Shown piece after piece: positions 6,246 to 58,199 of a DNA stretch of 58,199 nt. Each line of letters starts with the position of its first letter. Position 1 is the stretch's first letter. Both the position numbers and the translations under genes were made by a program. The stretch lies in the NCBI GenBank assembly GCA_048054495.1, contig JBGMQN010000069.1, positions 83,444-141,642 of the forward strand, written 5' to 3'. The notes beneath the pieces were generated by a model that saw only the letters and a program-made list of their open reading frames with translations, was not told the origin of the DNA and ran no database searches. The DNA comes from Anaerolineales bacterium (GTDB lineage: Bacteria; Chloroflexota; Anaerolineae; Anaerolineales; E44-bin32).

Positions 6246-8015
6246 GTGGAGTCTATGGACGATTTAGCCGCACTTGAGGCACGCGTTCGCGCTGCGCTGG
6301 GTAGTGAACCGCTCGATCTTCTCATACGTGGCGTGCAACTCGTGGATGTCTTTTCGGGGCGGGTCGCGGAAACCGACATCGGAATCCGAGCAGAGCGGAT
6401 CGTCTCGATCTTTCCGAGAGGCGAAGCTGCCTCGCGCGAGACAATCGAAGCGGAAGGGCTTTACGCGCTCCCTGGGTTTATTGATGCTCACGTCCACATC
6501 GAGAGCACTCTGCTCACTCCCGCCAGCCTGTCGGAAGTAATCGTCCCCACCGGAACAACGACCCTCCTCGTCGACCCCATGGAGGTGGCTAACGTCGCGG
6601 GTATCGAGGGCCTCGAAGCCTTTTTTAGCGGGGTCGAAGAGTTACCTTATCGAATGTTCGTTCAGGTGTCGTCGCGCGTGCCCACTGCGCCCGGGCTAGA
6701 GACGACCGGCGGAGATCTCGGAATCGAGCAGGTCAAGCGGATCCTCGCCTGGCCCGAAACTGTTAGCCTGGGAGAGCTTGATCCTTCAAAGGTCTTGAGC
6801 TTGTCCGCCGAGCATCTGCAGAAGGTGCTGGCTGCCTCAAAGCTTGGAAAGATCGCCAATGGGCACGCCATCGGCCTGGAAGGCGTGGAACTTGAGGCCT
6901 ACGCCTCTGTCGGAATAACGGACGACCATGAGTGTGTGACCGTGGATCAGCTAGAGGCTCGTTTGGCGGTCGGTATGGCAGCCATGATACGGGAAGGTAG
7001 CTCAGAGCGGAACCTGCATGACTTGATTGCAGGCATCCTGGAGCGCCAGATTGACACGCGCCATCTCATGTTTTGCACGGACGACAAGCATCCCTCTGAT
7101 ATCCGACGCGAGGGGCATATCAATTACAACGTCAATGAGGCCATACGCATGGGTCTGAGTCCGCTGCAAGCGATTCAAATGGCTTCGATCAATGCGGCGG
7201 AGCACTTCAGGGTGGGTCATTTAGTAGGGGCGATCGCGCCCGGGCGCTTCGCCGACATTCTGTTGTGCGCCTCTCTCGACGAAATCCGACCAGAGATGGT
7301 GCTGGTCGGGGGCCGAGTCGTGGCAGAGGACGGTTCGCTCACAGACGATGTCAAGCCGCAAGAGTTCCCTGACTGGCTGAAGCGGACGGTTCGCGTTCTG
7401 GCGGATCTCGAGCCCACTGTATTTGAGTTTCCCGCGCAAGGCACGACCGTGCGACTGCGCGTCATCGAGATCGTTCCGGATCAGATCTTCAACCATCTAC
7501 GCGAGGCCGTACTCCCAATCAAGGACGGCTCGGCGCAGGCCGCGCCTGAGCTCGATGTTCTCAAGCTCGCGGTCGTGGAGCGGTACGGCAAGAATGGAAA
7601 TGTCGCCGTCGGATGGACGAAGGGATTCGGACTCAAACGGGGAGCGATCGCCGGGTCGGTGGCGCACGACCACCATAACATTCTTGTGGTCGGAACCAAT
7701 GATGAAGATATGCTCCAGTGCGTAAGAGCCCTGGAAGAATCCCAGGGCGGCTTCGTCGTTGTAGAGAAAGGTAGAATCCTCGAAAGACTGCCGCTCCCGC
7801 TAGCGGGCCTCATGAGCGAGCTGCCGGCCAGCGAGGTCGAAACGCAACTCGAAAAGGTCCGCGCCGCTGCGGCGTCTCTGGGATGCCAATTGAAGACGCC
7901 ATTTATGACGCTCTCCTTCATATCACTTCCCTCGATCCCGGAGGCCGGCTTCTCCGACCGAGGACTAATTGATGGGGCGAAACAAGCGCTGGTCCCTGTG
8001 CGACTCGACGGATAG
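6246..8015 (+). CDS. ade: adenine deaminase
   Basis: 589-aa amidohydrolase. LPGFIDAHVHIESTLL metal-binding motif and overall length fit the Ade family. Confidence 0.82.
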   Translation: MESMDDLAALEARVRAALGSEPLDLLIRGVQLVDVFSGRVAETDIGIRAERIVSIFPRGEAASRETIEAEGLYALPGFIDAHVHIESTLLTPASLSEVIVPTGTTTLLVDPMEVANVAGIEGLEAFFSGVEELPYRMFVQVSSRVPTAPGLETTGGDLGIEQVKRILAWPETVSLGELDPSKVLSLSAEHLQKVLAASKLGKIANGHAIGLEGVELEAYASVGITDDHECVTVDQLEARLAVGMAAMIREGSSERNLHDLIAGILERQIDTRHLMFCTDDKHPSDIRREGHINYNVNEAIRMGLSPLQAIQMASINAAEHFRVGHLVGAIAPGRFADILLCASLDEIRPEMVLVGGRVVAEDGSLTDDVKPQEFPDWLKRTVRVLADLEPTVFEFPAQGTTVRLRVIEIVPDQIFNHLREAVLPIKDGSAQAAPELDVLKLAVVERYGKNGNVAVGWTKGFGLKRGAIAGSVAHDHHNILVVGTNDEDMLQCVRALEESQGGFVVVEKGRILERLPLPLAGLMSELPASEVETQLEKVRAAAASLGCQLKTPFMTLSFISLPSIPEAGFSDRGLIDGAKQALVPVRLDG

Positions 8016-14600: not shown

Positions 14601-15119
14601 ATGAATTTGGGCAGAGTAGCCGGCATTCTCATGATCGTTGGAGGGATCGTGATCTTTGGATTTGGCGCCCTGTTCTCTCTTGGACAGAGAGCGGCCGGTG
14701 AACTGAATGTTGGCGGTGCAATTGTCGGGCTTGGCCTGGTCAGTATTCCGGCCCTGATTCTTGTCGGGATTGGCATCGTGCTTCTTACGCGGTCCCGCCA
14801 GGAGCAGGAAGAGGGCGAAGAACGCGCCGAGCTTCGCAAGATCATGGACGTGGTTTTGAGCAGGGGCGAGGTTCAAATCAGCGACCTGGTGCTCGAAATG
14901 GGTACGAGCCGCAAAGAAGTGCAGGACCAGATCTACGTGCTGGTCGGCATGGGCCTGTACAGCGGCTACATAAATTGGGATGAGGGCACGCTGTATTCCG
15001 CTGAGGCCTCCAGCATTCGCGACTTGCGACGCTGCAAATTTTGCGGGGGAGAGGTGGAATTTGCGGGCAAAGGCGTACTGCACTGCCCGTACTGTGGCGC
15101 GGAGTATTTCATAAGCTGA
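14601..15119 (+). CDS. membrane protein with cytoplasmic helical domain and C-terminal Zn-ribbon
   Basis: Two N-terminal TM helices and CKFCGG...CPYCG. ATG immediately follows the DUF2207 TAA stop. Confidence 0.55.
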   Translation: MNLGRVAGILMIVGGIVIFGFGALFSLGQRAAGELNVGGAIVGLGLVSIPALILVGIGIVLLTRSRQEQEEGEERAELRKIMDVVLSRGEVQISDLVLEMGTSRKEVQDQIYVLVGMGLYSGYINWDEGTLYSAEASSIRDLRRCKFCGGEVEFAGKGVLHCPYCGAEYFIS

Positions 15120-15147
15120 TGTTGCTCCAGGTTCTAGCGCCCGCTAC

Positions 15148-15171
15148 GCGCCCCACGGGGCGCTTTTTTTT
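15148..15171 (+). terminator. rho-independent terminator
   Basis: GCGCCC-CACG-GGGCGC followed by T8, 29 nt after the Zn-ribbon gene stop. Confidence 0.85.
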
Positions 15172-15220
15172 GGTGAAAGCGAACAGGCGCCGGGGTCACT
15201 ATGATGATCTCTGAAGATCC

Positions 15221-54667: not shown

Positions 54668-55348
54668 TCAGAGCCTGCCGAACTCGGCCAGCAGCTCCTC
54701 GACCGATTTACCTTCCTTGATGCGCTTGCGGGTCTCTTCTTCCTTTTCTGCCTGTTCCCGAGCTGCGCGCAGGATCCCTTCCGCAGCCGACAAGGCCACG
54801 ACCGTCACTCCCACCTCGTCTCCAATAACGATGTCCCCCGGGTTGACGATCACCCCGCCGCATTGAATGGGAACATTGATCTCGAGCGGCTCCATGCGGC
54901 CGGAAAAGGGAGTGTGTGTGGAGCGTGGGACGATGGCCTTGGAGAAAATGTGGAAGCCGAGATCACGGATCTCATCCGTGTCGCGAATAGCGCCATCAAC
55001 CACCGCGCCTACCACGCCCTTCATCTGGGAAAGACCAGCCATCAGCCCACCCCAGATCGAGGTTTCGGTTTCGCCGGCGGCATCGACGACGATGACGTCC
55101 CCGGATTCAGCGACTGATAATGCGTCGAGGCAGTCCACCTGATTCCCGGGCTCCAGCCGCACGGTCAGGGCTGGGCCGGCAAAACGCACGCTCTGGGTCA
55201 GGGGACGAATATCGCTGTGCATGACGCCCGCCCGTTTTTGAGCATCCGCAACTACACACGACGGGCTGTAGATCTCAAGCAGATCCACGAATCCCTGCAG
55301 GACCTCTGAACTCGGTCCCACTTCACGCGGCAATGCTTTCTTACCCAA
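54668..55348 (-). CDS. RraA-family protein (putative 4-hydroxy-2-oxoacid aldolase / oxaloacetate decarboxylase type)
   Basis: GDVIVVDAAGE...WGGLMA...VVDGAIRDTDEIRDLGFHIF motif. Confidence 0.8.
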   Translation of the reverse strand: MGKKALPREVGPSSEVLQGFVDLLEIYSPSCVVADAQKRAGVMHSDIRPLTQSVRFAGPALTVRLEPGNQVDCLDALSVAESGDVIVVDAAGETETSIWGGLMAGLSQMKGVVGAVVDGAIRDTDEIRDLGFHIFSKAIVPRSTHTPFSGRMEPLEINVPIQCGGVIVNPGDIVIGDEVGVTVVALSAAEGILRAAREQAEKEEETRKRIKEGKSVEELLAEFGRL

Positions 55349-56162
55349 GCGTAGCCTCCTTCCTCGAGACGCCGGCTGCTCGCGCCTCGATGTACCCTAA
55401 ATCCCGTGAGATGCCTTGCGAGGCACGCACCGTCCTGCCGACTAAATCCTGCTCGTCCATTAACGACTTAATTCGACCTGCAGGCCCGCTGACGCTCACG
55501 GCCGCCACCACTTCGCCGTTCGGATCAAACACCGGGGCCGCAACGCAGCGAACCTCCGGTTCGTGCTCCTCCATATCAAGGGCATAACCTTGCTGCTGGA
55601 TCCGACTCAGGTGGCGGATAAGTTCGCCGAGGTTTGTAATGGTGTTAGGAGTGAATCGGTGGAGCCTTCGCACGTCGAAGTGCGATCTTACGGTCTCCGG
55701 ATCGAGGTAGGCAAGCAGTGCTTTTCCAAGGCCTGTGCAGTAGGAGGGCGATCGTCCGCCCACCTGAGAGGACATGATCCCGATGGCGTGCAATCCGGGT
55801 AGCTTTTCCAGGTAGACCACCTCCATGTCTGCGAGCAGCCCCAGGTGCACCGTCTCGGACGTCTCATCTCGCAACGCCTCCAGTTCTGGGAGTGCGACCT
55901 GGCGCATGTCGCTTCCGGCCTGATAGGCGCGGGCCAGCTCGAGACAGGCCAATCCGAGGCGGTAACCGCCCCTGCGCTTGTCGTGCGCCACATAATCGTG
56001 GCTGGTGAGGGTAGAGAGCAGCCTGTAGGTGGAGCTTTCGCTCAGCTCGATGCTTTTGGCGAGCTCGGGCAGCCTCTTCGTTTGGCCGTCGGAGAGCAGT
56101 GATAGCAGGGCGATGGCTCGCTCGAGCACACGGATGTTGTAGCGGCCATGGGTCTCTTGCAT
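55341..56162 (-). CDS. IclR-family transcriptional regulator
   Basis: N-terminal wHTH (ELAKSIELSESSTYRLLSTL) plus an IclR effector domain. AGGAGAGG precedes the ATG. 8-nt overlap with the RraA-like gene. Confidence 0.9.
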   Translation of the reverse strand: MQETHGRYNIRVLERAIALLSLLSDGQTKRLPELAKSIELSESSTYRLLSTLTSHDYVAHDKRRGGYRLGLACLELARAYQAGSDMRQVALPELEALRDETSETVHLGLLADMEVVYLEKLPGLHAIGIMSSQVGGRSPSYCTGLGKALLAYLDPETVRSHFDVRRLHRFTPNTITNLGELIRHLSRIQQQGYALDMEEHEPEVRCVAAPVFDPNGEVVAAVSVSGPAGRIKSLMDEQDLVGRTVRASQGISRDLGYIEARAAGVSRKEATLG

Positions 56163-56675
56163 CGTCCTCTCCTATTCCGCCCCGCCCGCCTCCGAACCTG
56201 CGTCGCGCGGGTAGGCAATAATGTAAGAATTAGGCCTCTAACTCACCGATCGCAGTGAGCCTACGAGCGGAGCTGCTGTCGATCGATCAAAATTCACTTA
56301 TCGATTCGTTCGAGCAAGGCATCGGACAGGAGCGATTGCTCCAGTCCCAAATGGGTGAATTCTGCAAAGGTGAGACTTTTATCAATTGAAAGCGGCTTTT
56401 ACTGTACGAAAATGTAGCAGGGTATTCTCGTCCTGTCAAGCCACGCAATCAATGGTGTCCGATTTCGGTCAGTGAAAACCGTTTTCGATGAATAAAAGTG
56501 TACGGGCCCGCGCGGGTCATTGCAATCGATAAATGTCACTTCCCCGGTATGGTTGCCTGCCCTCGTCTTTGTGCGTGGGACAGTGAAGCCATGGAAGATG
56601 CCAGAATACGCAGACGCTGCCATTGTGGTGTCTGAGCCGAACGAAGGGCAAGGCGGAAGGCTGATTTGCACCGCA

Positions 56676-56684
56676 TGCTATAAT
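56676..56684 (+). promoter_or_regulatory. extended -10 promoter element (TGCTATAAT)
   Basis: TGn + perfect TATAAT in a GC-rich genome, with no good -35. The expected TSS near 56690-56692 lies just upstream of ATG 56695. Confidence 0.4.
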
Positions 56685-56694
56685 CTGCGCCGCG

Positions 56695-56769
56695 ATGCGT
56701 GTGGACACCCGAGCCAATTCGAACGATAACAATCCCGAAAGTCATCGGGTAGGCACGCGCACAGGCTAG
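56695..56769 (+). CDS. candidate leader peptide MRVDTRANSNDNNPESHRVGTRTG
   Basis: 24-codon ORF between an extended -10 promoter and the aspS-proximal terminator. Codons 8-13 are Asn-Ser-Asn-Asp-Asn-Asn. No SD, so it would have to be translated leaderless or nearly so. Confidence 0.3.
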   Translation: MRVDTRANSNDNNPESHRVGTRTG

Positions 56770-56791
56770 CTAAGTTCAAACAGAATTGCGC

Positions 56792-56828
56792 CGCCGCCCG
56801 AGAGGCTCTTCCGGGCGGCGTTGTTTTT
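56792..56828 (+). terminator. intrinsic terminator inside the aspS leader (attenuator)
   Basis: CGCCGCCCG / CGGGCGGCG form a 9-bp all-GC stem with an 11-nt loop, followed by TTGTTTTTAT. It ends 3 nt before the aspS SD. Confidence 0.8.
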
Positions 56829-56841
56829 ATAAGGAGGCAAT

Positions 56842-58199
56842 ATGTTCAAGACACATGGCTGTGGCGAACTTCGTGTCGAGCACGTGGGCGAGCAGGTCGA
56901 GCTGGCCGGCTGGGTCAATCGCAGGCGAGATCATGGCGGACTGACCTTCGTGGACCTGCGCGATAGGTCGGGCGTGGTCCAGACCGTCTCGAACCCCGAG
57001 CTCTCGAAGGAGGTGCACGCCATCGCCGAACAGGTCCGTTCTGAATGGGTGCTGCATATCGTGGGGGAGGTCCGTGCGCGACCGGAGGGCATGCAGAACA
57101 CGAGCCTGCCGACGGGCGAGGTGGAGGTCGAGATCAAAGAACTCGAAGTCCTCAACCCGGCCAAGACTCCGCCGTTCACGATCAACGAAGAGTCGGAGGT
57201 GGACGAAATGGTGCGCCTGAAGTATCGCTATCTGGACCTGCGCAGAGAACGCCTGCAGCGGAACCTCGAGCTCCGTCACAATGTGATCCAGTTCATCCGG
57301 GACGAACTCGGAGCGCGCGGCTTCTGGGAGATCGAGACCCCGATCCTGTTTAAAGCCACGCCGGAAGGAGCACGGGACTACCTGGTGCCATCCCGTCTCT
57401 ACCCGGGGGAGGCCTACGCGCTGCCCCAGTCGCCCCAGCAGCTCAAGCAGCTGCTGATGGTGGCCGGAACCGAGCGGTACTTCCAAATCGCGCGCTGTTT
57501 CCGTGACGAGGACCAGCGCGGCGACCGGCAACCCGAGTTCACGCAGCTAGATATAGAGATGTCCTTCGTAGAGCGCGAGGATGTCATGCAGCTGCTCGAG
57601 GGAGTTTATTCATCGCTGGTCGAGCAGCTCTTTCCTGAGCGAGCGGTATTCGCAAAGCCCTGGCCGCGTCTCACCTATCAAGAGTCGATGGATCGTTTCG
57701 GCACGGATCGCCCGGATCTGAGGTTCGGATTGGAGCTCAAGGATATTTCCGATCTGGCGGCGGGGAGCGGCTTCAAGGTCTTCGAGGGGGCGGTCGACAG
57801 CGGAGGCGAGGTGCGGGGCATCAACTGCGAGGGATGTGGACACTTCAGCCGGCGCGAGATCGATGAATTGACGGAGATGATCAAACCATTTGGGGCGCAG
57901 GGGCTGGCATATCTGGCGCCGCAGGAGTCGGGCGAGCCCCGATCATCGTTTGCCAAATTCCTACCCTCCGACCGCTCCTATGCCATCATCAAGCGGATGG
58001 AGGCGAACCCCGGTGATCTGCTTCTGTTTGTGGCCGGCAAGCGGGGGGTGGTGCTTGAGTCGCTGAGCCGGCTCCGCGCGCACCTTGGAGCCCGCCTCGA
58101 ACTCTATGATTCGGACCTGCTGGCGTTTTGCTGGGTGATCGACTTCCCGCTGGTTCAGTGGGATCCTGACGGTGAGCGCTGGGATCCGAGCCACCATCT
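56842..58199 (+). CDS. aspS: aspartate--tRNA ligase (3'-truncated by the window end)
   Basis: Absent from the ORF track because it has no stop in the window. ATG 56842 follows AAGGAGG (56831-56837). MFKTHGCGELRVEHVGEQVELAGWVNRRRDHGGLTFVDLRDRSG and class-II motif FQIARCFRDED. Confidence 0.9.
   Translation, partial: MFKTHGCGELRVEHVGEQVELAGWVNRRRDHGGLTFVDLRDRSGVVQTVSNPELSKEVHAIAEQVRSEWVLHIVGEVRARPEGMQNTSLPTGEVEVEIKELEVLNPAKTPPFTINEESEVDEMVRLKYRYLDLRRERLQRNLELRHNVIQFIRDELGARGFWEIETPILFKATPEGARDYLVPSRLYPGEAYALPQSPQQLKQLLMVAGTERYFQIARCFRDEDQRGDRQPEFTQLDIEMSFVEREDVMQLLEGVYSSLVEQLFPERAVFAKPWPRLTYQESMDRFGTDRPDLRFGLELKDISDLAAGSGFKVFEGAVDSGGEVRGINCEGCGHFSRREIDELTEMIKPFGAQGLAYLAPQESGEPRSSFAKFLPSDRSYAIIKRMEANPGDLLLFVAGKRGVVLESLSRLRAHLGARLELYDSDLLAFCWVIDFPLVQWDPDGERWDPSHH

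Follow-up and report, generated by a model that had tools for sequence, protein, structure and literature searches.

The aspS locus and its leader

We analysed a stretch of 58,199 nucleotides (nt) from an Anaerolineales bacterium of the phylum Chloroflexota, called the window below, for the leader of its aspS gene, which a preliminary description made from the DNA letters had read as a leader-peptide attenuator sensing Asp and Asn. The gene encodes a bacterial-type aspartate–tRNA ligase (AspRS) and lies on the plus strand at 56842-58199, where it is cut by the window end; its start codon ATG occupies 56842-56844, and its product is recognised by NCBIfam NF001750 (601 bits, cutoff 443) and carries the Pfam domains tRNA-synt_2, GAD and OB anticodon. 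The upstream neighbour, as the preliminary description held, is divergent, being an IclR-family gene at 55341-56162 on the minus strand.

The leader opens with an extended -10 element, TGCTATAAT, at 56676-56684, without a recognisable -35 element. Ten nt past this box, an ATG at 56695 begins an upstream open reading frame (uORF) of 24 codons, MRVDTRANSNDNNPESHRVGTRTG, which is not preceded by a Shine-Dalgarno (SD) sequence and ends with the stop codon at 56767-56769 (uORF with stop, 56695-56769, plus strand). Because the gap between the -10 box and the ATG is short and free of an SD sequence, the uORF is probably leaderless or nearly so. Its codons at 56716-56733 read AAT TCG AAC GAT AAC AAT (N S N D N N), and five Asn or Asp (N/D) codons in six were reached in none of 300 dinucleotide shuffles of the leader, whichever forward frame was considered. 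Behind the stop codon stands an intrinsic terminator at 56792-56820, with a 9-bp stem made of G-C pairs (56792-56800 with 56812-56820), 3 inner pairs and a GCUC loop, followed by the U-tract UUGUUUUU at 56821-56828. Its hairpin has an energy of -24 kcal/mol (z = -2.85), and in our own scan no other clean GC hairpin followed by a T-tract on the plus strand of the window was as strong. Since the SD sequence of aspS, AAGGAGG at 56831-56837, begins 3 nt past the U-tract, there is no room for a separate aspS promoter between them. The -10 element, the 24-codon reading frame with its N/D cluster, the all-GC terminator and the missing space for a promoter had all been pointed out in the preliminary description, and each of them is present. 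A simple promoter and terminator scanner called neither element of the window leader, the promoter having no -35 match and the terminator an outer loop of more than 8 nt.

Competing RNA structures in the leader

The leader RNA can form three alternative pairings, which the preliminary description had drawn as 1:2, 2:3 and 3:4 and which folding confirmed. Region 2 (UCGGGUAGGCACGCGC, 56745-56761), identified by RNAduplex and folding, lies within the uORF and forms the 5' strand of an antiterminator, and region 3 (GCGCCGCCGCCCGA, 56788-56801), identified by folding and by covariation in the family described below, is common to the antiterminator and the 5' arm of the terminator. The 2:3 pairing extends over about 56742-56766 with about 56785-56806 and amounts to -24.3 kcal/mol; region 2 with region 3 in RNAduplex gave -25.6 kcal/mol, a value equalled by 7 of 300 shuffles. 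Region 2 can also be captured by region 1, of which there are two copies. The copy that follows the N/D codons (region 1b, CCCGA, 56734-56738) includes a Pro codon and pairs with UCGGG at 56745-56749 (-8.3 kcal/mol), and the copy upstream of the N/D codons (region 1a, ACCCGA, 56707-56712) is the one used in the minimum-energy folds, which place the N/D codons in the loop. The fold of the whole leader has an energy of -61.9 kcal/mol (z = -2.84).

Folding, a check that had been suggested beforehand, separated two states of this RNA when a ribosome was modelled on it. When the A site was placed on any of the N/D codons and the 3' arm of the terminator was absent, the free RNA adopted the antiterminator (-22 to -27 kcal/mol), and when the ribosome stood on the stop codon, the terminator alone formed (-24 kcal/mol).

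A different kind of RNA sensor could occupy the same place, namely a T-box, another riboswitch, or an operator that mimics tRNA and is bound by AspRS in the manner of E. coli thrS. The loop of the 1:2 hairpin in the window, AAGUCA (56739-56744), contains the Asp anticodon GUC, as a tRNA mimic would, but the leader has a length of only about 135 nt, and Rfam 15 gave no match at E<=10 within 56100-56950 and none at the gathering score anywhere in the window. The same search found the T-box (RF00230) in front of a Firmicute hisS-aspS operon (L029, 106 bits), which served as a positive control, and among ten leader-bearing loci the amino-acid leader families of Rfam gave no match at the gathering score. 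The T-box model, which had been named as the competing explanation, thus fails here, and we regard this whole class of sensors as extremely improbable. The anticodon mimic itself was rejected: the corresponding loop reads UAUCCA in L081, the closest relative, and the GUC of the window is treated as a coincidence because it is not conserved there.

Recurrence of the leader in other Chloroflexota

To place the leader in a wider frame, homologous loci were compared by reading 260 nt upstream of aspS and scanning all of these regions, roughly 150, for N/D clusters. The AspRS of the window is nearest to those of Chloroflexota, mostly Anaerolineae, with 66% identity to the best species representative and 86% to L081, a metagenome contig. 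The conservation check proposed in the preliminary description turned out in its favour: an N/D-rich uORF precedes aspS in 21 further loci of Chloroflexota, with AspRS proteins 55-86% identical to that of the window (L081, L082, L083, L085, L086, L087, L088, L090, L091, L092, L094, L002, L005, L006, L007, L010, L013, L016, L030, L048 and L101). Together with the window they form a set of 22 leaders, chosen partly by eye for N/D clusters, and they share one layout of -10 box, uORF, N/D cluster, region 2, stop codon and terminator. A TGnTATAAT-like box occurs at the equivalent place in all 22, mostly as TGnTATAAT itself, and the uORFs have 23-42 codons; examples of the peptides are MFNANLSALNDNNDPVLRRARGFTRQQS (L088), MKPELLFALNNNNNNNDDRMAAVGRSASG (L030) and MKSGLNFANNNNNDNDNNSRIVGRSIAG (L101). 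Common to all of them is also a GGGCG-type segment within the uORF, with complementarity to the terminator's 5' arm, and region 2 starts at a median of about 7 nt past the last N/D codon. The distance from the -10 hexamer to the ATG of the uORF is 6-10 nt, without an SD sequence, in 13 of the 22 leaders, and 19-36 nt, in some cases with SD-like sequences, in the other nine.

The clusters stand out in this partly hand-picked set. At least four N/D codons in six were found in 17 of the 22 leaders (2.4% of shuffles) and at least five in six in 11 (0.09% of shuffles), and fewer than one cluster of the latter kind would be expected across all of the roughly 150 upstream regions. In the best 8-residue stretch of each peptide, Asn makes up 43% and Asp 17% of the residues, and outside this stretch their shares drop to 2.5% and 2.3%; for comparison, the AspRS proteins contain 2.4% Asn and 6.4% Asp. 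Asn occurs in the cluster of every leader and Asp in that of 18, and Asn codons outweigh Asp codons with or without asnS in the operon. Codon choice differs as well, with AAT:AAC at 57:29 in the leaders and 90:148 in aspS (p = 8e-6). The proposal of Asp and Asn sensing is supported by a cluster whose codons are cognate to aspS, and in eight relatives also to asnS, and needs refinement in that Asn codons dominate over Asp codons.

The comparison with L081 tells what has been kept at close range. Similarity between the two begins abruptly at the -10 box, and the sequence upstream is unrelated. The uORFs agree in length, frame and stop codon, with two synonymous changes and 9 of 24 residues different; one of the differences is a GAT to AAC change (Asp to Asn) that took two substitutions, and in pairing 1:2 an A-U pair of the window is G-U in L081. 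That so many residues differ while the frame, the codons and the pairings are kept fits selection on codon identity and RNA pairing, not on the sequence of the peptide. This bears directly on the idea that the uORF encodes a TnaC- or SecM-like arrest peptide, in which a nascent N/D-Pro...RRxxGF sequence, maybe together with free Asn or Asp, would stall the ribosome. The signal would then not be the availability of charged tRNA for the codons, and the output would still be antitermination. Such a peptide would account for the N-P or D-P dipeptide that closes the cluster in 12 of the 22 leaders and for the recurrence of a basic stretch resembling R-R-x-x-G-F. However, the residues that recur after the cluster are encoded by nucleotides of regions 1 and 2 (CCC GA.., CGU CGG GCG A..), which covary with region 3, the window and L081 have their pairings and N/D codons in common where the peptides diverge, and outside the cluster the peptide sequence is not conserved across subfamilies. 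We consider an arrest peptide quite improbable.

Spacing in the family separates what is fixed from what is free. The distance from the stop codon to the terminator stem is 16-25 nt (median 19) in all 22 leaders despite the varied length of the peptide, and between the terminator's end and the aspS ATG there are 9 to 117 nt. The latter range weighs on the possibility that the element acts mainly on translation or mRNA stability, through access to the SD sequence or re-initiation, and that the hairpin is not a regulated terminator. In the minimum-energy fold of the window the U-tract does pair weakly with the SD region, and a translational precedent exists in the attenuation by leaderless Cys uORFs in mycobacteria, as far as this is conveyed by the citing texts PMC13236596 and PMC13402693. 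Nevertheless, the family has conserved a canonical GC hairpin followed by a U-tract, together with the competition for the 5' arm of this hairpin, and a mainly translational or stability-based action appears very improbable. Pairing of the U-tract with the SD region as the main switch was rejected, as it is not conserved because of the variable distance between terminator and ATG.

We attach just as little weight to a simpler possibility, in which the uORF is an unregulated small gene, or the hairpin a constitutively leaky terminator or insulator, and aspS is expressed by constant partial read-through. Two related loci lend it some colour: in L008 and L084 a similar hairpin follows directly after a co-directional upstream gene, and L084 has a second TGCTATAAT between a D/E-rich reading frame and the hairpin. 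However, constant read-through leaves the cognate codons, the covarying 2:3 pairing, the fixed spacing between stop codon and terminator and the lack of room for an aspS promoter without explanation.

These two loci and a third deserve description in their own right. In L084 (2881-2990 and upstream), the D/E-rich reading frame ends in MVTDDDLDDDEDFDEDAEIEEI and is in frame with the co-directional upstream gene, region 2 is degenerate, and the second -10 element stands just before the conserved hairpin; L008 has the hairpin without a uORF. In both, an attenuator may have decayed or been rearranged. In L003, a short reading frame, MQRNENFRNGTL, precedes aspS by about 100 nt; it is separated by 4 nt from a GC hairpin whose T-tract adjoins the SD sequence of aspS. 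This arrangement, which is outside the set of 22, may represent the device in a compact or divergent version.

Covariation and model search

Complementarity between regions 2 and 3 is a property of the family, with a mean z of -2.76 in RNAduplex relative to shuffles. The core pairing is typically CGUYGGGCGA with UCGCCCRACG (family consensus of region 2, CGUYGGGCG), and since regions 2 and 4 both bear GGGCG, they compete for the CGCCC of region 3. We aligned 14 leaders with MAFFT, leaving out the window and L081 (alignment A2). The antiterminator helix is paired to 89% in this alignment, as against at most 45% in slid registers, and one of its positions shows compensatory change (CG in eight sequences, UA in three, GC in one and UG in one); the terminator helix is paired to 93%, with four pairs changed on both sides. 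The 1:2 pairing takes the form of ACCCGA or CCCGA with UCGGG in the window. In L090, L016, L030 and L101 the N/D codons are enclosed in the loop of a stem whose strands flank the Asn run, CUUCGCC (encoding F-A) on its upstream side and GGGCGAAG on its downstream side.

A covariance model built from A2 (R1), and thus without the window or L081, recovers the window leader at full length (56725-56827) with 24.3 bits and a rough E of 3e-6, and also finds the non-seed leaders L007, L005, L086 and L081 as well as the variant L084. Its other matches are reverse strands of palindromic terminators or plain terminators; one of them, L158 at 6469-6551, was considered as a leader and rejected as an ordinary terminator after a gene. 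Within the window, a terminator of similar CGCCCG...GGGCG shape with U8 lies at 15134-15172 after a reading frame at 14601-15119, and R1 matched only its terminator part.

Proposed mechanism and relation to known attenuators

The window leader combines the features of the trp and pheST class of attenuators, namely a short reading frame, a cluster of cognate codons, an intrinsic terminator, an antiterminator and a 1:2 pairing. Because this layout recurs in about twenty other Chloroflexota, we think it very probable (roughly 0.8) that the leader is a ribosome-mediated, leader-peptide transcription attenuator of aspS that reads the charging of Asn- and Asp-tRNA. The attenuator proposed in the preliminary description is thus supported by conservation, by compensatory changes in both helices, by the spacing of stop codon and terminator, by the promoter boundary at which similarity starts, and by the lack of a T-box.

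The following course of events is predicted from the elements and energies given above, and the transcription start site, the translation of the uORF, the stalling and the choice between termination and read-through are all model steps. Transcription would start a few nt past TGCTATAAT, and a ribosome would start at the ATG at 56695 on an almost leaderless mRNA and trail the polymerase. With ample Asn-tRNA(Asn) and Asp-tRNA(Asp), the ribosome would pass the N/D codons and region 2 and reach the stop codon at 56767; region 2 would then be unwound, occluded or re-captured by region 1, region 3 would pair with region 4, and the GC hairpin with its U-tract would end transcription 14 nt before the aspS ATG. 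With poorly charged tRNA(Asn) or tRNA(Asp), the ribosome would stall on 56716-56733 and cover both copies of region 1, which leaves region 2 free to pair with region 3 once the latter emerges, so that no terminator would form and the polymerase would enter aspS.

Several observations weigh against this mechanism. With the 3' arm present, the terminator is favoured even when region 2 is free, as the complete fold then reaches -31 kcal/mol and the antiterminator state -22 to -27 kcal/mol; the decision on read-through would therefore be kinetic, and the trp attenuator likewise depends on kinetics. Enrichment of Asp is confined to the cluster, its share in the peptides taken whole being 6.5% and in AspRS 6.4%, and four leaders have weak clusters, with two N/D codons in six in L082 and L083 and three in six in L048 and L094. 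The enrichment statistics are biased upward by the partly visual choice of the 22 leaders, and the leader is absent from about half of the closest aspS loci. Finally, we know of no documentation of transcription-translation coupling or of the efficiency of intrinsic terminators in Chloroflexota.

The nearest known systems are the pheST-type attenuators of synthetase genes, which likewise combine cognate codons in a short reading frame with three alternative pairings (1:2, 2:3 and 3:4) and with an intrinsic terminator that immediately precedes the gene. The present leaders differ from them in the amino acids (Asn and Asp), the genes (aspS or aspS-asnS) and the phylum, share no sequence similarity with them, and have a uORF that in most members starts 6-10 nt past the -10 box and contains region 2. 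The trp, his, leu, thr and ilv leaders of Proteobacteria (Trp_leader, His_leader, Leu_leader and Thr_leader in Rfam) belong to the same mechanism class, but they control biosynthetic operons and not synthetases, and their Rfam models give no match here. Just as the aspS leader would sense both Asn and Asp, the thr and ilv leaders sense more than one amino acid each. In Firmicutes, T-box leaders of aspS, hisS-aspS and asnS follow the same logic, in that a terminator in front of the synthetase gene fails to form when the cognate tRNA is poorly charged; there, however, uncharged tRNA is bound by a structured RNA of about 200 nt, whereas the leader described here has about 135 nt and an N/D reading frame that looks translated. 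The polycysteine uORF attenuators of mycobacteria (Canestrari et al. 2020, as cited in PMC13402693) resemble it in having a short, probably leaderless uORF with a run of the relevant codon. According to what PMC13236596 relates of them, these mycobacterial uORFs act at least partly on translation and control genes of cysteine biosynthesis, whereas the aspS leader has a canonical intrinsic terminator and a competing antiterminator.

Our full-text searches turned up no Asn/Asp leader peptide or aspS attenuator, and a prior prediction in a 2010 survey of synthetase attenuators is possible; in that year, Lopatovskaya, Seliverstov and Lyubetsky reportedly surveyed attenuators of synthetase operons across bacteria. 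If the mechanism holds, Asn and Asp would be added to the limited number of amino acids for which classical leader-peptide attenuators are known, and aspS and aspS-asnS would join the few synthetase genes controlled in this way (pheST, and trpS and leuS in Streptomyces). Chloroflexota, which are poorly studied and mostly uncultured, would then regulate through transcription-translation coupling and intrinsic terminators the same genes for which Firmicutes use T-boxes. The conserved leader also provides a ready annotation model and a compact candidate part for a reporter of Asn- and Asp-tRNA charging.

Genes behind the leader and specificity of AspRS

In eight of the leader-bearing loci (L002, L006, L016, L088, L090, L091, L092 and L101), asnS lies directly downstream of aspS. 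It was recognised in L002 and L016 by NCBIfam NF003037 (540 and 516 bits, cutoff 414) and in the other six by tblastn (67-83% identity). Because asnS stands directly behind aspS, the N/D leader is predicted to control both synthetases in these loci, which the dominance of Asn codons fits. No asnS was found within 2-2.6 kb of aspS in L007, L013, L030 and L048; aspS is followed in L083 by recA and in L081 by a 6S RNA gene and then a reading frame whose start resembles the recA of L083. In L010 (2611-3942) and L094 (4801-5463), glnA, with the Pfam domains Gln-synt_N and Gln-synt_C, follows aspS after a gap of about 30 nt, which would place it under this attenuator as well. The tRNA-dependent synthesis of Asn takes its amide group from glutamine.

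The AspRS of the window contains RRRDHGG and RPEG, as do the Asp/Asn ligases of P. aeruginosa and of M. tuberculosis and M. smegmatis, and its His and Gly are found at the corresponding places of the Asp/Asn ligases 4WJ3 and 4RMF. The E. coli enzyme carries Leu and Lys there, and AspRS1 of T. thermophilus carries Leu and is without the Gly position. What the His and Gly do in these enzymes was reportedly described by Suzuki et al. in 2015. The same His also occurs in loci with asnS next door, and the sequence is therefore compatible with a discriminating as well as a non-discriminating AspRS. Two close relatives, L004 and L095, have Leu in place of the His (RDLGG, as in discriminating enzymes), and both are without an N/D leader, these being two cases only.

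Where asnS is not in the operon, the Asn codons may reflect an AspRS that charges tRNA(Asn) through the indirect route with GatCAB, or they may have been inherited from an ancestor with aspS-asnS. The further idea that the leader chiefly senses Asn-tRNA(Asn) from the indirect route, with an AspRS that does not discriminate (ND-AspRS) in those loci, fits the glnA genes behind aspS in two members and the RRRDHGG and RPEG residues of the window AspRS; we hold it to be possible and, on balance, unlikely. Were it correct, one synthetase gene would be tuned to the charging of two tRNAs, and the output of ND-AspRS and GatCAB would be monitored. The dominance of Asn codons is in any case a concrete handle on which route to Asn-tRNA these organisms depend on.

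A 6S RNA gene (RF00013) lies directly downstream on the same strand, behind aspS or aspS-asnS, in L081 (4840-5013), L082 (4822-4994), L002 (6269-6444) and L088 (5802-5977), and likewise in L026, L029, L035, L057 and L058. This synteny of aspS and 6S RNA is common to Chloroflexota and Firmicutes loci, and the window ends before the expected position. In several members, 6S RNA may be co-transcribed with aspS and thus come under the attenuator.

Surroundings of the leader in the window

Neither a tRNA gene nor an asnS at another place was found in the window, and no database record was found for its IclR protein. Between the IclR gene and the leader promoter lies a spacer of about 510 nt (56163-56675) with a lower GC content of 45-50% and no similarity to L081. 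Two small reading frames in it, 56399-56671 on the minus strand and 56520-56729 on the plus strand, lack support. The spacer also contains a sigma-70-like site on the minus strand (56439-56411), with TTGACA, a 17-nt spacer and TACATT preceded by TG, which may be the promoter of iclR. Through the M24 peptidase encoded in the window we also found a 4.8-kb contig with 99.8% identity, which ends in aspS at an earlier point than the window does.

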